The notes under the pieces are model-generated. The model saw nothing but the letters and a program-made list of their open reading frames with translations. It was not told the DNA's origin and did not search any database. Both the position numbers and the translations under genes were made by a program. Below, piece by piece: positions 8,143-35,331 of a stretch of 64,000 nt of DNA; the stretch's first letter is position 1, and every line of letters starts with the position of its first letter. This stretch comes from Zootoca vivipara (Eukaryota). The stretch lies in assembly GCF_963506605.1 (NCBI RefSeq), contig NC_083291.1:36332001-36396000 (forward strand). Direction: 5' to 3'.

Positions 8143-8476
8143 CAGAAGTATGTAAGGTCCAAACTACACGGGGCATGCAAACATGCATAAATGGAACCCC
8201 CAAGAGCATTCCCAAAAGGAAAAGCCGCTTTGGGAGGGAATGATCCAGAGTAAAGAAGCAAGACCAAACAGACCTCACAGCTGCAGAGTTCTTCTTGTAG
8301 CAATGTCACATTAAGAGGAGTAAATGTAGGCAGAGGGGAAGGTGGGGGTGAGGGTGGGGTAAAGGAATAGGGGTTGGAATGTGTTCAGTCCTGAGGGGCG
8401 CTGGCAAAGTTTTGGATAAAGGTGACTTGTAGGTCAAGACAGAGAGATGCCAGTGGATCCTCTTCTTGCCTTCCAG

Positions 8477-8715
8477 ATGTGGAAGTTCCCCTCTACAAGA
8501 AGTTCCCCCATGTACCAGAACTGGCTGGGGTCTCTCCGGCTGCACCTTCCTCCCTTCACACAGCTGCCACCCCTACCAGGAGACGTCACCGAACTACCTT
8601 CAGCCAGGACCAGCTAGATCACCTGGAGGCAACTTTTGCAAAAAACCATTACCCTGATATTTACTGCCGAGAGGAGCTGGCCAGGGCTATCAAACTCAAT
8701 GAGGCTCGCATCCAG
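8477..8715 (+). CDS. PROP1: PROP1 exon 2 (homeodomain up to ...EARIQ)
   Basis: Acceptor cttcttgccttccag|; encodes RRRHRTTF...EARIQ; donor CAG|GTACC at the canonical paired-like homeobox intron position. Confidence 0.95.
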
Positions 8716-9710
8716 GTACCTGCTCAGTACTTAATGGCCCCAAGAACATATGGGCACTGCCATATTGGATGTGTTGAAAGCAGCCTGCAAGGGGCCTTTT
8801 GGAAACTGGGTCTCCAAGGCACTTACGTTCTGTGCCTTTCTACAACCATGGGACAAAGAAAGTGTGCTTTTTAAAGTCACATTTAGAACTACTTTTCCCC
8901 TTTGGTGTTTTTCATTCTAAGTTAACTGTTTTCCTAATAGTGAGGCAGTATTTTACTAACTGCATTAATGGGTGTATGAACTTGAAGCTCTGAGTTTATG
9001 TAAACTTAAACAGTTCTGTTACATGTATTTCTTTATAAAAAATATTTATAGACCACTAATTTATATTAAAAAATCAGAGTGCTTCACGACAGTTGTACAT
9101 AAAAATACATACAACAAAACCCACAGAAAATAGTTAAAATCAGAAACGAGGTAACTATTGTGGAAAGATGCATTCTTAATTGCCTGAAGGAATGGAAAAG
9201 TTTTCAGCAGGCATTTAAAAGTTGAAACAGAAGGCGCAGGGCCAGACCAATGTTACTGGTTACATGTTGTTGTAACATAGATTCTATACGAGAAACTGAG
9301 GCATCCCCCTCCCAATACCTACTACTTTTAATTTCAACAACAACCAAAAATATTAACCAGAGAACCAGCTGAGTGTGCAAAGTCCAGAAAGCTGCTAAGA
9401 ATCTGCTTGGGCCCACAATTCCAATCTGCCGATACCTATGTATAAATGTGCATCGTTCCCCTTTTGCCTATTGTTTTGAAAGTATAACGAGTCCATCCCA
9501 AACACACTGCACAAGCTTATCTCATAATTTCCTGCTTCTGGCAGATGTTTACCTTCTGCTGATGTTCCATAACGTTCTTGGTTTTCCAAAGGCTTGCACT
9601 GACAAGTTATGAATTTTCAGGAATAATTCTATTCTAAACATCATTGCCGAGATGCCTTGCCCATGGAATACGATTCACAATATGCATTCTCTCTCTCCTT
9701 GTGCTGACAG

Positions 9711-16489: not shown

Positions 16490-16800
16490 CCCCGCCCTAC
16501 AATCCAGCCAGAACCGGAAGTGCAGGTCTCTATTACTGTATGTGGAAAGGATGAGGAGGTGGAAGCCTCGCGCGAGTGAACAAAGGCCCCGGATGCAACT
16601 CTCTTTTTGGAGGGAAAAAGTTGAACGGATCCCCGGATGTCGCAGCGACCTCTCCCGCACCACAGGCGCAACGGCCGTGCGTAGTAGGCGCATGCGTAGT
16701 TTGCGCACTTAACCCTAGGAAGGCGCGGCGTTCATCACGTGACCTGCCGCGGTGGGCGGGACGCTATAAAAGCGTAGCGCGGGCGGTGCCTCGGCCGCAT
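16490..16800 (+). promoter_or_regulatory. RBM3 CpG-island TATA promoter
   Basis: ETS CCGGAAGT at about 16514; NRF1-like GCGCATGCG 16688-16696; E-box TCACGTGAC 16735-16743; GC box 16754-16759; TATAAAA 16765-16771; Inr-like CATTTT at about 16798. Confidence 0.75.
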
Positions 16801-18008
16801 TTTCAGCTGCTTGAGCCAAGGAAGCTTCTCTTCGGTAAGGCGGAGTGGCGGTCTTGCGGGCTCCCTTTGTTGTTGGTGAAATGCACGGTGCGGGGGGGTG
16901 GGGTGTTCCGACGCTTCCGTTCAAACAAGTACGGCAAGTAACGAGGTAACGGTGGCCGTTCCTCAGTAGCGATGACGTGAGGGGGTGGCAGTGGGGGCCG
17001 CGGCACTAAAGCGCACGCGCGTTCGGAGCAGCGTTCCGAATGCTGATGATATGCGCATGCGGCAGAGGAGCCCTGTTCCCCTCGCGCCGCGGGAGAGGGA
17101 AAACAGCGGTCTGGCGTGGCGCGCGTTGGTTTTGGAACGGGGGGGGCGAGGCGGACATGAGAAGAAGCAGAGCAAGGAAATGGCGGAGGGGGTCCCGGCG
17201 GGCGGGTGGGTGGGGCGCATTCGCGAGGCCATGCAGCGGGCTTCGGCGCCTGCCGCCATCTTTGGTCGTCCGGATTGCCCCTCTTTAAGCTGGGGGTGAA
17301 CAAGATGGCGCTCGAGGCGGGGAAATGGAGGGCGGCCTCGAGGCGGGGAGGGAGAAGTGCCGTTTCCTTCGCTCTCGCGCCACCCCCACCTCTCGCCTTC
17401 CGCTAAGTTTCTCTTCGGGAACGGGCAGTTGAAATATAAACTGAGGCGGGGGCGTGGCTTAAGGTTTGTTCCTTTTTATTTGTTTTTTTTAAAGCCCAAC
17501 AGCAACTCTGAACTCGAAGCTTGTAGGTGCTTGAAGTGGGTCAGATTTAGCAACTGCTTCTGTGACGCGAAGGGCGGGGACGTATTTGCACGGCCATGGG
17601 AAGCTTTCATTTTCCGATTGGAAGTAATGCGCAACCACATGGAGTTTGGCTAGGCGAGGATTGGGGTGGGGAGATGGGGACCTGCAACAGGTTTTCTTAT
17701 TGTGACACCACATGCAGGGTGACTTCTAAAGGAGGGGGAATTAAGCCATATTTGATGAATGAGTGAACAGAGCAAGAGTACTGAAAATATTGGGACTGAT
17801 ACTTAAGTGTGTAGCTTCTCTGGAGAGTTGGGAGTTTAAATTCTTCGCGAACTGGGAAGGGTTGTTTGCAGCTGGATTTTGCTAACTTGCTCTGCAATAA
17901 GCTTTGGTGATTCCTCAAATTCTCGTAATGGAATTGTTCCAGTTTTGGACCTCTGATCCACAGTTGTGCACATTTCTCTTCTTTAGACTCCTCCCTACCA
18001 CCATTATT

Positions 18009-18111
18009 ATGTCTTCTGAAGAAGGAAAGCTGTTTGTTGGGGGGCTGAATTTTGACACTGATGAGCAAGGCCTGGAGCAGCATTTCAGCTCTTTTGGACC
18101 CATTTCTGAAG
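18009..18111 (+). CDS. RBM3: RBM3 exon 2, coding part (RNP2)
   Basis: Acceptor before 17987, ATG 18009, donor G|GTAAGC; 103 coding nt. Confidence 0.95.
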
Positions 18112-18199
18112 GTAAGCAAGTGTGGTGTTGGGGGTGGAGTTTTCCCCTGGGGTCAACATAAAATTGGATAACTTCAGCTATTTTGTTTTCTGTTCTTAG

Positions 18200-18306
18200 T
18201 TGTTGTGATCAAGGATAAAGAGACCCAGAGATCAAGGGGCTTTGGCTTTATCACCTTTGCCAATCCTGAGCACGCATCAGATGCCATGAGAGCCATGAAT
18301 GGAGAG
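18200..18306 (+). CDS. RBM3: RBM3 exon 3 (RNP1 RGFGFITF)
   Basis: ttcttag| acceptor, GAG|GTGAGT donor; 107 nt. Confidence 0.95.
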
Positions 18307-19281
18307 GTGAGTATTTCATTGTGGTGTGATCTGTTACCTGTTCTACTGTGTCTCGGCTGCTTTAATTATATGAGACTAAACAAAAAGGTTTCCCAGGAAA
18401 CGTACTGCTTTGATTTTAGTTTTTGTGAAATGCCTTTAATTAAACTATTTTAGAAAATGGCCTTTTCTTGCTTGCAAGTGTCAACCCAATAGTAGGGAGC
18501 TCTTGCAGTGTATGCACGTTACCTAAATGCACATGTGGTGATAATGCTTCTGATTTAGTGTCAAGGTGAGCGGCTATTTATGTCATAAACTGGTGAGAGA
18601 CAGCTATATTGGTAACAGGCACAGATGCTGCTGGACTTTTGCTTCTTTCAACATTTGACTATTGGCCATACTGTAATGCCTGAGATCTGGCTCTTCTTGG
18701 GGAGCTGGATCCTGCATTCTTCCAGATGTATTGAAAGCTCATTGAGTGGCATTGCTAGTTCACGTTTCCACTACCCTTTTTTACTTTCAGACAAGAACAA
18801 TAATAAGAATTATACCCCACCCCTCTGGCTGAGTTTCCGCAGCCACTCTGAGACAAGCTACTCTCAGATTATTTACCACTCACCTTTACAGTGTTTCCTC
18901 CCAACAGGAATCAGCAGCAGGACTGCTTTCTGTGATTCCAGAGGTTTTTCAGAATACTGACTATCTTTGGGAAATTATTTTTAAGTGGTTCAATTTGCTG
19001 TGTGAAGTGCAAGTTCCAGAATAGCTGCTTTTGCTTGTAGATCTTGTGTAATGCAGGGGGCAGGTACCCAAACTTACACAGGTGGGGAACTTCAGAACTC
19101 AATTTGGAAATAAATCTTCTGAACTCTACAGTATCTTAATAAGAGCAATAGTAATTGGTGAAAAGTCATGTTTTATTAACAATTGGTTATGTGCATATGA
19201 AAATTCATGTAAATAGTTGCTTTGTTTGATCAGCTAATTAGTTAAGCAATGGTCATAATTAAAGTACTTGTTCATTATCAG

Positions 19282-19387
19282 TCTGTAGATGGGCGCCAGA
19301 TAAGAGTTGATCATGCAGGGAAGTCTTCCCGTGGATCTAGAGGTGGCTACTTTGGAGGCAGGGGGCGAGGCCGTGGTTATTCCAGAG
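19282..19387 (+). CDS. RBM3: RBM3 exon 4 ([19 protein letters not shown] region)
   Basis: atcag| acceptor, G|GTGAGT donor; 106 nt. Confidence 0.95.
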
Positions 19388-19496
19388 GTGAGTATAAGGA
19401 GATTGAAACAAACACTTGCATGCATTGGGGTAATGAGGTGGGTGGGTTGCTGGTGGCTTAGCTGTCACTGAAATGGTTTTCTTTTCCTCCTCGGAG

Positions 19497-19572
19497 GTGG
19501 TGGAGACAGAAGCTATGGTGGGCGATACGACAACAGAAGTGGAGGCTACAGCGGTTCCCGGGACTACGGCAG
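19497..19572 (+). CDS. RBM3: RBM3 exon 5 ([24 protein letters not shown])
   Basis: Polypyrimidine tract followed by an unusual GAG| acceptor; AG|GTAATT donor; frame consistent. Confidence 0.88.
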
Positions 19573-19649
19573 GTAATTGTACTGATGTGTTCTCCTTTAA
19601 TGTTCAGTTTTAGGTGAGCAGATATAAAACACAAATGCTTTGTTTTCAG

Positions 19650-19716
19650 AAGTCAGGGAGGTTATAACGATCGCTACTCTTCAGGAGGCTCTTACAGAGA
19701 CAACTATGACAACTGA
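19650..19716 (+). CDS. RBM3: RBM3 exon 6, coding part (..SYRDNYDN*)
   Basis: ttttcag| acceptor; TGA 19714-19716, then G|GTAAGT donor. Confidence 0.93.
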
Positions 19717-20866
19717 GGTAAGTGGATTTTGGGAAGGGAGTGAAAATGCTGTCTTGCCAAAACGCTTGTGAACTTTCAGTGTTCCGACTTTACACTGAGT
19801 AACAGCAGTAACTACAGCTCCCTACTGAGTTGTCAGTATCAAAGATGTTTCTTTTCTTTTTTGTTTATCTGCCATTTGCTCAAATCTAAAACATTGCAGC
19901 CCTCAGTTCACATTACTGGTAAATAACTTTAAGTGCATGTTGGACCTTAAAGAACTCTTAAATTCAAATTGCAAAGTTGTCAGTGCTAACTGGGGGAGGG
20001 CCTGAGATTCCTAGCATCACTAATCTAAAAAAGTCTAGGAGTGGTGAATTGCTGCAACATGTCCGTATGCTTGTGCCTTTATGATTGTACCTGCTTCTTG
20101 TCCTCAGCTCACACCGAGTAAAAATCCTTCCTGAATCAAGATCGTCCTTCCAATGGCCGTATTTATAAAGATTTTTGGAGCTTCGCTGAATCTTGTTTAG
20201 TTACCTACTTGTATCTTCCCCCATATAGCTTTTGTCACATGCAGCCCGAAAGCTTCCTCTACAAGATGGCCTGTTTAGACTTTGCTCAAGAGTTGGTTTT
20301 TTCAAGAGTGGTTTTTAAGCATTTTTGAAATCGGTTTTATTTGTCTTGCTTTCTCAATCCAAGGTTTCTTTTAACGTGACACATGGGGCCCTACAACTTT
20401 AAACAGCTGGAAGCTGAGCAAACCTTTTTTGAAATAGTGCAGTGCAAGAGTTCAACTCCTAGCATAGTAAGGGAGGGCAACAAATGCAAACCACCTTGGT
20501 ATTAGTAAAAGAATTAAATGATTCACGCTGGTTTAGTAAAAAGCTATTTTACTGTACAAAGTAAATCCAGAAATCAAAACTGAACGCTTTGAGAGGTTCT
20601 TGAAAATGTTTGTTTATATTGTCCTTTTTTTACTGGAAGAAACGTGCATAATTCAATTGACATTGTATTTGAAGTGGATAAGGAAGTTCCTGTACTGAGT
20701 TTTTGGCTTTACGAAGCCCATTAAAATCCCATCTGAAACAATTCTCTGCTCTTGACGTTTGACATCACATTGCACCGCACAACTTTGATAGCGACAAGGA
20801 AGCAGAAGCACGTTGGGCCTCACCTAGGTAAATCCCAGGGTTGGTACCCAAGTAATAAATTTGATA

Positions 20867-26936: not shown

Positions 26937-29605
26937 TCGGCGCCATCGCGATACCCTCTTGCCTCAGTGGCTAACGGCTCTCTTCGCATCCTGCTCAGAG
27001 ACCGGCTTCGGTGAGTGCTTTGACGCCGGGGAAGCCCCAGGCCGCTGCAGGAAAGCCGTAGGAGGGGCGCTGCATCGAGCATGGAAGGGGAGCAGGGAGA
27101 GTAACGGGGAAGAAAGCTACCTCTTCGCCGTGTGGGGCGGGGGAGGCTGAAGGGAGAGACGCTACACAAAATGGCGGCGGCTGCTCATAAAGAACGAGAG
27201 GGCCCCTCTGCGCACACTTGTGTTTGAAACGCCGTTCTCTCAGTCTCCTTCGCAAGGAGTAAAGTGCGTTGCTGAAGACCACCAGGAAGGGAGGAAATTG
27301 TTCCAGGGGGATGGAGAGCATTAGACGTGGCCAAGTCCGCTGTAGCAGCGGGTTTAACGCGGGGGCGGGAGAGGAGGAGCCCTTGGCTTACTGCGCCTGC
27401 GCGAAGGCTGTTCGCGGAGCGCGGGACAGCAGCGGGGTAGTCTTTGCGCATGCCTGCTGGGGTCTCAGTCCGTAGAACGTGAAACGCGCTGAGCTCGCCT
27501 TCCCGCATTCTGTTCAGACCACGTGTTCGCGGCCATTTTAGCAGGGGGGAGGGGTGGACTGGTTGGGGCAAAGAATGGAAGCCCATTCTCTCTGCAGGTC
27601 TGCGTTGATAAGCCGTCGGGAGCCACTGCAACACTCACATCGAACCTTCCTTCGATGACTTGCTCCTGATATTGATGCACTAAGATTTCAGGATCTTACC
27701 ATACGCACCTGATAGATGAAAGCTGCCTCAGGTCGTCAGCCGCATGTTACCAAAATTATTGACCACAGCATTCTAGTAGTTGCTGCTCAAGGTGGAGTCA
27801 ATACCAGGCTTCATAAGATGGTTCGAGAAGCCCTGATCTTACATATTTTTTGCTTGAAAGCAAGATCCACCTGTATGGCTGAGGACTTAATCCAAGCAGA
27901 TACTCATTTTCCCGTAAACTAGAAAACGCGCTGAACGATTGTTGGGGTTCATCATTGCACATGGGTGTAAAACATGTCAAGCCGGAAGGGTGGTAAATAA
28001 GCTATAACAACAATTAGCCCTCATAAAATACTAGTTACAATGAGGTTGCCATAATAATAATATTTTATTTATACCCTGCCCATCTGGCTGGGTTTCCCCA
28101 GCCACTCTGGGTGGCTTCCAACAAAATATTAAAAATAAAAAAACAACTTGATTCAAAGTGTGTTCACCCTAATGCACTTTAATCATAAATAGTATTAAAG
28201 GTAGGGAAGTGGCTTAACACTGCCACCTCCTTTTCATATGTGAAAAAGACTGCCTGCATGCTTACTTCATTTAGCCATCCATTTTTCTGAAGCAGGCATT
28301 GATGAAAATTGAGAAGTGCTTATTAGCATTTGGCCTTGGCATGTCCAAACCTCAACGTCTGCCTGATAGCTTATCTGACGCTCTGGACTGGAGAAAGCAA
28401 TTCAGATAGGCACTTCGAGTGGGGGAAATAAGCATCTTCCATCTCTGTTTGGCAATTAACACAGTTATATCACTGGGAAAACAAATTAACTGCTCATTTG
28501 TAGCTAATTCACTCCTGCCTGCTTATAGCTAACCCCAGTCACCTGTATCTTAATTACCTCTAGAATAATGAAGAACTGTTAACAGCTAGGCTCATTCTGT
28601 GTCCAGTAAAATGTACTTTTATGCACTCATAAGACTGTCCTTTACTGTAGAAGGCACAAGATATAAACACTTCTAACATTAAAAGTAATGGCACAAGAAC
28701 ACCTTGTCTGGTATTAAGATGAAGCACCAAAAGAACAAGAGGGCAACATTAGCAGTCCTACCTTTGAGTAAACTTTTTAGAAAATTCTTTACTCCTGCAA
28801 ATGGCCACACACATATATCCACTTTTTGACCACAGTATATGCTGCCTTATTGCATGTTTATTTGAGAGTCAGTCACATTGTTTTCAGTGATGCTTATTCC
28901 CAGATAAGTTTGCACAGGATTACAGTTAAGACTAGTTCTGTGCACAATCGCTTGGGAGTAAGATCTACTGGAAATAAAAAATAGGCAACATTGATTTTTC
29001 AGTTTGTTGCTTCCAGATAAATAAATGGCTGCAAATAAAAACAGAAGAAGTAATTTTTCAGCTTCACCATGTCTCTGCCTCAGGGCATTCAGGGGAAAGT
29101 AAACATGTTAAGTTTACAATGCTCAGTTGACAAAGATAATTATGGGTCTCAGTTCAGTGGTAAACAGATAGTAAAACAAAGTTAAGAGGCACCCGGCCTG
29201 GAAGTGAGACTGCTACTGGAAGTCAGGCAACTAATGAAGATAAGCTACAAAAGGAAGGTGTTACCCTGGTCAATATGCGCAACCTATACATCAGTGGTGA
29301 TGATCATACAGCAGATTAAGAAGAAGCCTGGCTTTGTACCATATTATTCATTGGTTTAATGAATATTAATTTGCCCCAGTCCAGCAGAAGGAAGGAAACT
29401 GGTTTACAAAAGAGCAGCAGGCCTTGGATGTTTTGCTGACAGGCAAATTAATGATAATTTGTTTTCCTGGAAAATGAAAACGGGATGTTAGTTGTTGGTG
29501 AGCAGCTACTTGTAAATTGCTAGTGTAGCCTGTTACCTTTTGTCCTTATTCCCACATATGTTTGCCATATCTAAACACATTTCTTCCCTACAGATCACTT
29601 CAACA

Positions 29606-29708
29606 ATGGCATCAGATGAAGGAAAACTCTTCATTGGAGGGCTCAGTTTTGACACCAATGAGCAGAATCTGGAGCAGTTGTTCTCCCCCTATGGAGACAT
29701 TGCAGAAG
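29606..29708 (+). CDS. CIRBP-like paralog exon 2, coding part
   Basis: cttccctacag| acceptor before 29594, ATG 29606, G|GTGAGG donor; 103 nt. Confidence 0.93.
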
Positions 29709-30510
29709 GTGAGGAAGGGTGTCGCACCTGATTTTATTCTGTCATTACAGAAGTTCTGAATCTGTTAATGTTTCTGCACCAGGAAACCAATTGGTAGGGA
29801 TTTGGAGTTTGCAAGTGCATACACTCAAACAATGATAGCAACTATACTACCGGTATGATAAGTTAAAAGACTTGTCACATCTGGCATTCAAGGCATGACA
29901 ACTCTTTGGATGAGGCAGAAAATCACCATTCATTCTTGTGGCAAGCAAGAGCCACCATCCCTGATAGAGAGCCCTCAATGACCACATTTGGCCTCACCCC
30001 TGTGTTAATGTCAGCAACCTTGAACGATTTACTAGCAATTCCTGTGCTGTATCACTTCAGATCACAGCTGGAGTTTGCCTGCTTATTCATGTAAAATCCT
30101 TTTTTCTGAACATTCAAAATCAGTGTGTGACGAAGACTGTCCAACTATGTTCATATTGAACAAATGGGGTTTTGTTAACATGAGAGAGCACTTGATACAT
30201 ATCTGCATTCTGAAGTGATACTCCTGGCAATATAAAGTTAATGATGTGCATCTTGCTTTCTCCAAATTGTGTTGTCATTAATACTATGGCTTGCTCATTT
30301 GATTTGTTTCAATATTAATCTAATTAAACTGAAATAGCAAAGCTTGCCATTCAGTCCCATGGCTTGCTTTAGTCATTACCAAACACATCCAGCCTTTCCC
30401 CCAATCCTCTCTAAAACAGTTCTGTAAATACAATAGTTTCCTAGCCCTGTTTAATTTCCTCATCCCTTCCTCTCAACTCTATTTACACTCTTGTGATGTG
30501 AGAAAACCAT

Positions 30511-30737
30511 GAATCATAGAATCCTAGAGTTGGAAGAGAACACAAGGGCCATCCAGTCCAACCCCCTGCGCCAAGCAAGAAACACCATCAAAGCATTCCT
30601 GACAGATGGCTGTCAAGCCTCCGCTTAAAGTCCTCCAAAGAAGGAGACTCCACCACACTCCTTGGAAGCAAATTCCACTGTTGAATAGCTCTTACTGTCG
30701 GGAAGTTCTTCCTAATGTCAGGAAGTTCTTCCTAATG
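30511..30737 (-). mobile_element. CR1 LINE 3' fragment
   Basis: GAATCATAGAATC tail repeat, CR1 3' hairpin region and RT C-terminal remnant. Confidence 0.8.
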
Positions 30738-30803
30738 AAGTCAGCCTGCTTCCTTCCCCTACCCCACAGGTTATGAAAGCATCCTTTACTATATGTTTTA
30801 GCA

Positions 30804-30940
30804 CAGGCTTCCTCAACCTCAGCCCTCCAGATGTTTTTGAGACTACAATTCCCATCATCCCTGACCACTGGTCCTGCTAGCTAGGGATCATGGGAGTTGT
30901 AGGCCAAAAACGTCTGGAAGGCCAAGGTTGAGGAAGCCTG
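30804..30940. mobile_element. hAT MITE (about 136-bp family)
   Basis: TIRs CAGGCTTCCTCAACC/GGTTGAGGAAGCCTG; TSD TTTTAGCA. Confidence 0.92.
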
Positions 30941-31485
30941 TTTTAGCACAATGTTTCAATATAGCCTTAATTTTATAAAACCTTGATCCAAAGTGGTCTT
31001 GATTATTTATAGCTGGCAAAGTGGGATGAGGGGCATGTATAGGTTATATTTGAAGAATGCCAATGATACATGGCTGGATCTTCCTAATTTTCAAAGTGAT
31101 AAATTGTATTGAAAAAATACAAAGGTATCAAGATGTCTAGTTGGGAAGGATTGTGCGTCGATATTACAGACCTCTTGATGTATAGATTTGAGCTTTCCTG
31201 GAAGCAAGCCCTTGTAATTGAGAGATTGGTTAATAAATTACATGAGCTCATTAATAACAGCATCTTATTTCCCCAGTAAGATAGACAGCAGGGTTTTTCT
31301 TATTCTTCAGCATCCAATTCTTGAAGCTTATTTCCCAGATGCCCCCGTGTGGCTATAATGTCCTTCCAAGCAGTCTTTGAGTCTGAAGTGGGGCTAAAGA
31401 CGGAACCTGGCAAGGGACACTGGCTGTCAACTACATGCAGAAAAAGAGCCAGGAAAATAATCTGTTAAAATTTTTCTCTCTCCAG

Positions 31486-31592
31486 TGGTTGTGGTGAAAG
31501 ACAGGGAGACGCAGCGGTCCAGGGGTTTTGGTTTTATTACCTATTGCCGTCCTGAAGATGCCAAGGATGCCATGAGGGCTATGAATGGAGAG
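31486..31592 (+). CDS. CIRBP-like paralog exon 3 (RNP1)
   Basis: ctctctccag| acceptor, GAG|GTAAGT donor; 107 nt. Confidence 0.93.
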
Positions 31593-31643
31593 GTAAGTGT
31601 CGCCCGCATAGATTGTTCACCATTTCTTATTCATTCTCTATTG

Positions 31644-31779
31644 CAGGCATCCCCAAACTTCGGCCCTCCAGATGTTTTGGACTGCAGTTCCCATCATCCC
31701 TGACCGCTGGTCCTGTTAGCTAGGGATCATGGGAGTTGTAGGCCAAAACATCTGGAGGGCCGCAGTTTGGGGATGCCTG
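31644..31779. mobile_element. hAT MITE (about 136-bp family)
   Basis: TIRs as at 3826; TSD CTCTATTG. Confidence 0.92.
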
Positions 31780-32383
31780 CTCTATTGCATCCACTTTCTT
31801 TGCAACTTCCTAGAATATGGAAGGCTATTAGATGTGATCTGTCATGATTGTATTGCAAAATGTTGTAACTACCTACTCTTACTTTGGTGGGTGTGCAGCA
31901 CAGTGAGCAGCAATAATTTTTAGTCCTGAATTACAGCTCCAGGATTGCTTAATTCACCTTTTGTTACAGCAACTTCATGATGCTCTTCTAAACTCGGGTG
32001 GGGAACCTGTGGCTTGTCAGCCCAGAATCCACATTTGGCCCATGATGCCATTTCACTCCCAAGTTACACTCAACTGATGTCATAAGTGATGTCAGTTGTG
32101 TGGAAAAGTCAGGTCTGTTTGGTTGGGGTGCACCAACCAATGAGATACACAAAACTGGTTGTCCTGAATTCAGCTTTAAAAAAAAATTCAATAATAAAAT
32201 TTATTTAAATATTTAATTTAATTAAATATATATTCTGTGGGTATTCCATAGCATTCAGCAGAACAGGGATTTGTTCTGCTTCCCAGTGGCAGAGGATGCA
32301 AATCATTCAAAACAAAATTTTAATCCAAGCTTTGATTATATTGGACTCCTGCCTCCTTGTTAGCAGGTTGGAAGAGTAGCATA

Positions 32384-32709
32384 AAAAGGTAAAGGGACCC
32401 CTGACCATTAGGTCCAGTCATGACCGAGTTGGGGGTTGCGGCGCTCATCTTGCCGGCGTACAGCTTCCATGTGGCCAGCATGACAAAGCCGCTTCTGGCA
32501 AACCAGACAAACTGAAACACTGTTTACCTTCCCGCTGTAGCGGTACCTATTTATCTACTTGCACTTTGACGGGCTTTCGAACTGCTAGGTTGGCAGGAGC
32601 TGGGACCAAACAACGGGAGCTCACCCTGTTGCGGGGATTCAAACCGCCGACCTTCGGATTGGCAAGCCCTAGGCTCTGTGGCTTAACTCACAGCACCACC
32701 CGCGTCCCT
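32384..32709 (-). mobile_element. Sauria SINE
   Basis: tRNA-derived head and ACCTTT tail; 16-bp TSD TTGGAAGAGTAGCATA. Confidence 0.93.
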
Positions 32710-32776
32710 TTGGAAGAGTAGCATACATCTTGGTTAAAAGCTCTGGCTCTGATTTGTTCTCTTGCTTCTCCCCAAG

Positions 32777-32870
32777 TCTGTGGATGGGCGTCAGATCAGA
32801 GTGGACCAGGCTGGAAAATCCTCCCGTGGCTCTTCTGGAGGCAGAGGGCGTGGACGTGGATTCTCCAGAG
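32777..32870 (+). CDS. CIRBP-like paralog exon 4
   Basis: cttctccccaag| acceptor, G|GTGAGT donor; [16 protein letters not shown]. Confidence 0.92.
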
Positions 32871-32954
32871 GTGAGTGGCTTGTGCCCTTCAGTGCTAACT
32901 GCTTAGTGGTGTGGGAGCAAATAGGCTTGATAAACATTCATATCTTTGCTGCAG

Positions 32955-33033
32955 GCGGTGGAGGATATGGAGGTGGCCGTTATGATAACAGAAGCGGTGG
33001 CTATGGTGGATCTAGAGACTATTATGGCAGCAG
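32955..33033 (+). CDS. CIRBP-like paralog exon 5
   Basis: gctgcag| acceptor, AG|GTAAGA donor; [25 protein letters not shown]. Confidence 0.9.
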
Positions 33034-33714
33034 GTAAGACCAACACACGCACCTAAGAGATACTTGGTTGCAGCAGATTGTGGTACCTACAAATATGATG
33101 TTGAGATCATGATCCTTTGTGTTCTGTATTAGAATAACAGTTTGAGAGTTCCTTCTGAACCATTAAACTTTTCCTTAGAGGTAGCAAAAGAGAGCTGTTG
33201 AAGTGCTCCTGATTATTTTAGCATTTGGAAATAGGCTTAGCCCGCTGTATGCTGCTATGGCATGGAAGCTGCAGGTATTGCATGCTGTTTTAGTAACAAC
33301 AGGCTATCATGTAGAAAGGAAGATTCGTCCTGCCATGCCTCAGTTTTTACTCAGTTTTTATAACCTCCTTACTAAATTGGTCCTCTCTTAATGACCAATT
33401 TATATACAGCACTTAAATAAGAATGAGGTTTATAAATGAGCATTTCCGTAAAGGTTCTTTTTGTAATTTTGTCATAATATTGATATTTTAATATGCCTAC
33501 CTGTACAATGGGACAGCAGCCCCAAAATAAGTTCTGGGTGGTTCTTCAGGTCCCCAGAGCAGATTTTTTTTCATGGGCGGGAGGAGGCAAAGAAGAATCC
33601 CCACTGCATGAGTGGATGGATGCCTGCTCATACTACACTGAATCTCACTCAATGTATAGCATCTAGCAGCAGCTCAGCAGTGACATATCAGTCTTCTGTT
33701 CTTTTTCCCTCAAG

Positions 33715-33778
33715 GAATCAAGGAGGCTATGGAGACCGTTACTCTGGGAGCTCCTACAGAGACAACTACGATAACTAG
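33715..33778 (+). CDS. CIRBP-like paralog exon 6 (..SYRDNYDN*)
   Basis: ttccctcaag| acceptor; TAG 33776-33778 directly followed by the GTAAGT donor. Confidence 0.9.
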
Positions 33779-35331
33779 GTAAGTGTATGTCTAAGCACCA
33801 TCTGCTTCTTATATCAGGATAGCTACTAAAGCATAGGACTTAGTTCTCTCACGTCACAGACTAACTTTGTCAGCAAAACTCCTTTCCTCATCAGCAAGTC
33901 TAGCATAATTGCGTATGCAGAATTGGCCTGTTGCTGGAGTAAAGCAAAAAATAAAAATGGGACAGTTAAACCCATCCACACACTTTGTTTTTAAGGGACA
34001 CTGTTGAGCCAGCCTATAAAAACCATGACTACAGCCTTTTACACACGGAAACTTTCTCCGAACCGTAAGTTTATGGGAATTAAACCTCTACATTCCTAAT
34101 ACGGTCTTGCTTTTGTTGAAAAACAAAAAAGGTGTATGCGAATACTCTTTATTGGCAGATAATTTCCCCCCTGCATCATCTCCAAGGCTGCGAACAGTTG
34201 CCCTGGGCTGGGAGGAGGGAATCTAGGTTAGCATCAAGCACCAATGTTCTTCAGTGTACTTTATGATCTGTACCTGCTTCTTGTCCTCAGCTTGCACCGA
34301 GCATAAATCCTTCCTGAATCAAGATCGTCCTTCCAATGGCCGTATTTATAAAGATTTTTGGAGCTTCGCTGAATCTTGTTTAGTTCTCTACCTGTATCTT
34401 CCCTTTTTGTAGTCTTACCACAAGCAGCCCAACAGCTTCTGCTACAGGATGGCCTGTTAGAGCTTTCTGAAGGAAAACATTTTAATTTGCCTTTTTTTTT
34501 TACAGGTGTGTTTAAGCATTTTTGAATACATACTTTTATTGCTTTCCCCCACCTCCACCCCCTGGATTTCTTTTAACACACCAAGATGGGGGTTCTGACC
34601 TATTCTTCACCTAAAATTCCCCAGAGTCTGAGCAAGGTGTGAGGATCCTCCTTGTTTTTATAAATGCATTAATACCTTGTAGTTTTGTAAAAGTCCTATG
34701 GTGTAGCAAGCAAGGGGTATGGTGGAAGGCAAAACCCCCTTGATTATAAAGGGAGACGTGTGTTTGATCTTCAGAAATCAGAATTTATACTGTATGATGT
34801 ACCTAGAACCGAAGCTTGCAGAACTTGCAAGTTGTTCTTGAAAAACCGTTTGTTTATATTTTTTTTTAAACTGGAAGACACACATGTAACTCGATATTGT
34901 ACTAAAAGTGGTTAAGGAATTCCTGTATTCAGTTCTTTGGCTTCACGAAGCCTATTAAATGCCCTTCTGAAAATGAAATTTGTTCTTGACGTTTTAACAC
35001 TTCAACTATGCCCAATTTAAAGCCATAATACATGGCACATATTTTAAACTGCTGTGTATTTGTTAAACGGATACCTTGGAGAGGAGATGCCAAGGAATTT
35101 CAGTACTTAGTTCAGTGGGCTAAAGCCTACAAGCATTTGTATTTGGGTGCTTTGTATATTGTCAGTTTGAAAGATTGTGCCTTGTGTTTGGGATTCTTTC
35201 TATATTGGCTTGTGTGCCACAGAACCTCTGCCGTTGAGGTATTCTGGGGTAAGCATGTAAGATACCAGCCTGGCCTGTGGAGCCTGAACTGGATGTATCC
35301 ATGAATATAGGCTATCATCCCTTGGGTGGTA

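Follow-up and report, generated by a model that had tools for sequence, protein, structure and literature searches.

A candidate poison exon in intron 3 of a lizard RBM3 gene and its faint likeness to mammalian exon 3a

The mammalian RBM3 gene carries a heat-included poison exon, exon 3a (PMC10165353, PMC10350819, PMC12446472), which serves as the switch for cold induction of the neuroprotective RBM3 protein and as a drug target, as described in passages of PMC10165353. The passages of these papers drawn on here call the exon conserved, either in placentals or in mammals. The lizard locus analysed in this work, part of a 64,000-nt stretch of Zootoca vivipara DNA (the window), raises the question of whether the corresponding reptilian intron holds a related exon. 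A preliminary description had proposed one, and its account of the mammalian mechanism agrees with the passages of PMC10165353 and PMC10350819. Temperature-controlled splicing older than endothermy has already been published for CIRBP and for CLK kinases (PMC11346455, PMC11570493, in part); as these show such control outside mammals, the surprise of a lizard switch is limited. Among titles, opening parts of abstracts and text passages, nothing on a reptilian RBM3 poison exon was found. Related literature, likewise drawn on in part, includes bioRxiv 10.64898/2025.12.18.694734, PMC5021741, and PMC13077969.

The region 16796-20700 on the forward strand is a seven-exon gene, gene A, whose product of 152 residues contains an RRM plus RGG. 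Its structure was compared with three raw RNA runs (X20, X21, and X22) that carry the same species label, belong to one study, and were each read at about 6%. The features of gene A are as follows.

16796..16834, forward strand: 3' part of non-coding exon 1, donor TCG/GTAAGG; the 5' end of a retrocopy aligns here, and loose RNA ends before exon 2 carry its sequence
17987..18111, forward strand: exon 2, with the ATG at 18009 (sequence, RNA reads)
18200..18306, forward strand: exon 3, phase 0 at its end (sequence, RNA reads)
18307..19281, forward strand: intron 3, 975 nt; exon 3-exon 4 reads number 152 (X20), 457 (X21), and 683 (X22)
19282..19387, forward strand: exon 4 (sequence, RNA reads)
19497..19572, forward strand: exon 5 (RNA reads)
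19650..19717, forward strand: exon 6, second acceptor at 19653, TGA stop 1 nt before the last junction (sequence, RNA reads)
20108..20700, forward strand: last exon, 3' UTR, end approximate (RNA reads)

The junctions are fixed by RNA reads and exon 1 by the retrocopy, and 18307-19281 is therefore intron 3; exons 2 and 3 together hold 210 coding nucleotides (phase 0). In a tree of 38 rows and 92 columns, made of 36 rows picked among the 120 matches listed and the window's two genes, gene A clusters with therian RBM3 in a clade of 17 rows (support 99/98), and both CIRBP and a tandem paralog, gene B, fall elsewhere. The best protein matches to gene A bear the name RBM3, and an RBM3-like protein from Lacerta and Podarcis agrees with it over the 95 residues shown, as suits a lacertid lizard. 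Gene A is a true RBM3 ortholog and, because it groups with therian RBM3, its intron 3 is orthologous to the mammalian one; the tree, the junction reads, and the retrocopy thus place the proposed exon in the right gene and the right intron.

Several other observations were made around gene A. The tandem acceptors of exon 6 at 19650/19653 (CAGAAG) are both well used (93/33, 416/340, and 518/315 reads), and other squamates have matching pairs of isoforms with 152 and 151 residues. In a single low-depth contig from run X1, exon 2 follows directly on an alternative 5' exon that lies in intron 1 (17240-17463, donor AAG/GTTTGT). Two copies without introns occur elsewhere, namely a full-length processed RBM3 copy with an open frame of 151 codons (L002 1147-1650, G000:C11) and a 5' fragment copy (L003 1460-1660, G000:C12). 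Upstream of RBM3, 8395-8871 encodes a homeodomain (Pfam PF00046, E 5.7e-13), the sole match in a Pfam run on 45 of the 253 open reading frames of the window.

Gene B lies in tandem, 11.6 kb downstream of RBM3 (region 27010-35000, ATG at 29606), and encodes 148 residues.

29606..33778, forward strand: coding span of gene B, a third RBM3/CIRBP lineage (tree, searches)

It groups with snake, gecko, turtle, and echidna proteins in a clade of seven rows, with support (85/84) under the starred level, and no therian protein of its type occurs among the best 120 of 451 matches. The RBM3/gene B pair likely predates the mammal-reptile split, because in platypus and Heteronotia the accessions of the two types are consecutive or nearly so and lie on one contig. 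Gene B is thus likely, judging from these sequences, a third, amniote-wide RBM3/CIRBP paralog, and a literature search found no published account of it. Genes A and B are also alike in non-coding sequence: 20077-20290 and 34259-34472, which cover the last acceptor and the start of the 3' UTR, are 87% identical over 216 nt, and a second block (20596-20760 and 34834-34994) reaches 76% over 171 nt. These blocks reflect either strong constraint or gene conversion. At position 20119 of the shared 3' UTR, gene B-type reads account for 951 of the 970 reads in X20, 442 of the 2202 in X21, and 153 of the 2209 in X22, and the balance between the paralogs is strongly different between these samples.

The candidate exon and the signals around it in intron 3 are the following.

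18454..18565, forward strand: candidate poison exon, longest form 112 nt, 42% G+C (sequence; no junction read)
18490..18508, forward strand: AG cluster containing the TAG stop at 18490, weakly like the start of the short mammalian exon 3a (comparison by hand, Table EV1)
18524..18526, forward strand: TAA stop for starts 18479, 18500, and 18509 (sequence)
18550..18571, forward strand: end of the candidate and donor AAG/GTGAGC, like the mammalian exon 3a end (score 7 by hand)
18810..18850, no strand assigned: dispersed repeat that attracts unrelated reads (genome search, reads)

The splice signals proposed in the preliminary description are all present: the donor AAG/GTGAGC at 18565/18566, and acceptors for starts at 18454 (TTTTAG, 112 nt), 18479 (TGCAAG, 87 nt), and 18509 (TTGCAG, 57 nt). 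The first start leads in frame to TAG at 18490 and the other two to TAA at 18524, as had been claimed; further possible starts, absent from that earlier list, lie at 18493/18496. The candidate is located between exon 3 and exon 4 and introduces a premature stop with junctions downstream, as exon 3a does. Such a stop is not diagnostic, because each of the 12 AGs that lie between exon 3 and 18565 leads to one, and an in-frame stop falls within 61-84% of arbitrary 57-112-nt stretches of intron 3. The acceptors and stops are at chance level. The donor is the sole AG/GTRAG in intron 3; among 5000 simulated introns of the same composition, MAG/GTRAG arises by chance in 6.1% and AG/GTRAG in 11.2%, so that the donor is mildly above chance. 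Pyrimidines at -20 to -4 number 11 of 17 for start 18454, 13 for 18479, and 7 for 18509, and the real RBM3 acceptors of exons 3-7 have 10, 11, 14, 14, and 16 of 17. Start 18509 has three other AGs at most 20 nt upstream. The acceptor for 18479 ends in AAG, which is not fatal because gene B uses two AAG acceptors.

The chance levels of AGs and stops, together with a donor expected in 6-11% of such introns, favor the view that the candidate is a pseudo-exon arisen by chance, in which a donor-like site and common AGs in an ordinary intron are never used and the likeness to exon 3a is coincidental. On the minus strand of the window, MAG/GTRAG occurs at eight sites. In line with that view, the candidate shows no unusual fold (z +1.11) and no Rfam match. 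A search of the lizard's own genome with 18380-18780 returned the locus itself only, with no retrocopy containing the candidate seen. Two other donors in intron 3, CTG/GTGAGA at 18592/3 and CAG/GTACCC at 19063/4, have zero reads. In organism B the G at 19064 is an A (one low-depth contig), and a G-rich 23-nt insertion at 18621, 56 nt past the candidate donor, occurs in one low-depth X1 contig and is absent from nine X20 reads.

The likeness to the mammalian exon weighs on the other side. Mammalian exon 3a is 268-271 nt long, with flanks of 119 and 228 nt (Table EV1, PMC10165353), and its internal acceptor is at position 107 (PMC10165353). The alignment to human and mouse exon 3a was scored by hand (+1/-1, gap -2), so the scores may be lower bounds, and the window and scoring were chosen and the tests designed after the match was noticed. 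The last 25 bases of the candidate and of human/mouse exon 3a reach a local score of 7, the aligned part being the last 16 exon bases, 18550-18565; GTCAAG stands immediately before the GT in the lizard and 2 nt before it in mammals. A donor-anchored score of at least 7 occurs in 1.2% of 6583 genomic 25-mers preceding a GT and in 0.4-1.6% of simulated ends, the exact GTCAAG 6-mer lies at most 2 nt from a GT in 5 of the 6583, and 11 genuine exon ends taken from genes A and B score 1-3. When the lizard side is held constant and its partner is taken from the window or simulated, p is 0.004-0.016 for the donor-anchored score and 0.03-0.09 for the unanchored one, and the latter values also suit a chance pseudo-exon. 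Such a pseudo-exon needs two coincidences at one site, however, namely the best donor of the intron and a donor-anchored likeness with p of about 0.004-0.016.

A second collinear block, 18490-18508, also reaches a score of 7 when aligned to the mammalian bases from the internal acceptor onward, with p of 0.015-0.025 per single pairing before correction for several pairings. One of several equal alignments matches the mammalian acceptor to the lizard TAG at 18490-18492, which places the exon start at 18493. The gap between the two blocks is about 57 nt in the lizard versus about 145 nt in mammals, about 90 nt being missing, and the first acceptor is 147 nt past exon 3, compared with 119 nt for mammalian exon 3a. 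A third block upstream of 18479, seen by eye, was dropped as it brought no gain in score. Over the whole exon the score is 7, under the null median of 9. The proposed alignment to human and mouse exon 3a is thus borne out as a faint positive at the donor end, and the comparison of the whole exon is not significant. The likeness of the candidate to exon 3a appears faint but above chance, and is a hint, not proof, of homology to the short exon 3a form.

Like mammalian exon 3a in its long and short forms (E3a-L/E3a-S), as far as described in passages of PMC10165353, PMC10350819, and PMC12446472, the candidate lies in the orthologous gene and intron as a phase-0 insertion with premature stops, and several possible acceptors share one donor at a similar spacing from exon 3. 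Unlike the G-rich mammalian exon of 268-271 nt, it is 57-112 nt long with 42% G+C. In mammals the G-tracts R1 and R3 lie beside the exon 3a splice sites (PMC12446472, PMC10350819). In the lizard these G-tracts, including the hnRNPH1 site, are missing; the candidate has one GGG, and G4Hunter values are at most 0.48 over 18400-18650. No enhancer core M2 or M4 was visible by eye against Table EV1 (PMC10165353), and M2 sits outside the short exon 3a form in mammals also (PMC10165353). The lack of a G-tract or enhancer core fits a chance pseudo-exon, and because of it the candidate should not be filed as exon 3a. That it may work in the manner of exon 3a we only infer.

Introns of related genes were scanned in the same way. 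Intron 3 of gene B (31593-32776) has no counterpart of the candidate (best donor-anchored score 6 among 59 GT sites), and neither has intron 3 of CIRBP, a separate gene on contig C6 (L004), which has no GTRAG donor (best score 5 among 31 GT sites). Intron 3 of gene A has only a repeat in common with those of gene B and CIRBP.

The use of the candidate was examined in 7 of the 22 runs listed (X1, X3, X5, X6, and X20-22; X2, X4, and X7-X19 were left out). A joint was called at 3 or more reads, with depth tables covering what falls below 3. The two mappings of X20 used the identical 7.5 million records, about 6% of that run, and are therefore not independent. Reads that skip from exon 3 to exon 4 total 1,292, with 226 start places, in X20-22. 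The preliminary description had looked to reads joining 18565 to 19282 and exon 3 to the candidate acceptors; all three raw runs, made without an NMD block, contain none, and no joint or loose end falls at 18565 or at any candidate acceptor. These zero inclusion junctions against 1,292 skipping reads refer to samples with NMD active and with temperature and tissue not on record. The depth is zero across 18341-18602 in X21 and X22. In X20 it is zero over 18409-18516, and 18517-18732 totals 1,350 bases, equal to nine full 150-nt reads; every one of these nine X20 reads in the candidate region is intronic and unspliced. At 95% confidence, inclusion stays below 0.12% if reads are counted and below 0.66% if start places are counted.

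In human neurons without NMD block, exon 3a inclusion is 2.3% + 1.5% at 37 C and 0.2% + 0.1% at 32 C, according to passages of PMC10350819. The warm human level is excluded in the lizard runs. Inclusion at the cool human level would give 7.8 reads (P0 0.0004) or 1.4 starts (P0 0.26); it is excluded by reads and not by starts, is overall not clearly excluded, and lies near the detection limit of the lizard reads. The contig runs X1, X3, X5, and X6 show no inclusion form: X3, X5, and X6 have no contig piece over the candidate, and X1 has an unbroken intron contig. Since contigs lose rare forms, these runs cannot show absence. With zero inclusion reads and nine unspliced intron reads added to the sequence statistics, a chance pseudo-exon is nearly as likely as a real, normally skipped exon homologous to mammalian exon 3a, itself a tentative reading that falls a little short of an even chance.

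The intron reads also bear on another possibility, that lizards tune RBM3 through intron 3 retention instead of a cassette exon, with read-through stopping at TAG 18451 and leading to NMD. Nine X20 reads from 4 start places cross the end of exon 3 into intron 3 (versus 152 spliced reads), nine X20 sense-strand reads lie at about 18545-18724, and low-depth intron contigs occur in X1 and X5, runs whose RNA origin is a guess. However, the molecules are few, come from one of the three raw runs, and never extend across the 3' half of the intron, and ordinary pre-mRNA accounts for them; tuning by retention is improbable.

Truncated proteins were sought in other lineages. In the protein collection, 15 sequences carry the tail of mammalian exon 3a (GVEGSGRQSRAAWEATTGPA or close), those named being placental; all 14 members of one cluster have the GVEGSGRQSRAAWEATTGPA-type tail, and a bat protein has it in frameshifted form. 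Among the protein search matches there is no sauropsid form with a cassette-exon tail and none like the lizard's predicted tails, and the truncated sauropsid forms that were found mostly start the tail with valine, as intron read-through does. This negative result is weak, because reptiles are far less sampled and clustering hides members. Metagenome loci containing the exon 3 end were rejected as host DNA, as all six were 55-72% G+C and matched by pattern only. Organisms B and C yielded no contig covering the candidate. Mammal-type RBM3 fragments under penguin (flagged contamination) and bacterium names are likely database contamination.

The candidate may be compared with two known systems. 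The warm-induced NMD isoform of CIRBP (exon 7b/8) belongs to the same family and likewise couples temperature-linked splicing to decay, and its 3' splice site is conserved across vertebrates (PMC11346455, in the passages drawn on); it is an alternative 3' end, unlike a cassette exon in intron 3. The poison exons of SR-protein genes resemble the candidate as stop-containing cassette exons in genes for RNA-binding proteins, and differ in lying within ultraconserved elements (PMC11346455, in part), whereas the lizard candidate is at most faintly conserved.

A dead vestige, in which the site descends from an ancestral poison exon whose splicing was lost in lizards, would account for the faint likeness and the missing reads together. 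Mammals and lizards diverged about 320 million years ago, however, and over that time an unconstrained intron should lose its likeness; the neutral parts of intron 3 show none even to the tandem paralog. A vestige is therefore highly improbable.

In the preferred reading, that of a real, normally skipped exon, 18454-18565 would be short, poor in G, and related to the 3' part of exon 3a, through an ancestor shared with 3a-S. Its inclusion would stop translation within the RRM, at most 12 codons past exon 3 for the three named starts. A stop with exon junctions downstream triggers NMD, and with four junctions following the premature stop the transcript would probably be removed. If heat raises inclusion, CLK kinases and SR proteins would be the most likely route, since the lizard lacks both the G-tracts on which hnRNPH1 acts in mammals and the mammalian G-quadruplexes. 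CLK thermosensing is reported to be conserved and tuned to each organism's upper temperature (passages of PMC11570493), and the temperature response of RBM3 is lost on CLK inhibition (passages of PMC10165353). That the cold switch itself is kept in lizard RBM3, as the preliminary description proposed, is rather unlikely, since both a real exon and heat control are required. Similarly doubtful is the wider picture of an RBM3 poison exon as old as the amniotes, in which the short lizard core (acceptor cluster and donor end) would be included near the upper body temperature, and placentals would later have added a G-rich thermosensor and enhancer blocks and retuned the exon to 33-39 C.

If true, a lizard version lacking G-tracts would mean that the exon is older than endothermy and would make the old core separable from mammal-specific temperature tuning. 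It would also serve as a natural experiment on what sets the response: G-quadruplexes, hnRNPH1, or enhancers of the CLK/SR route.
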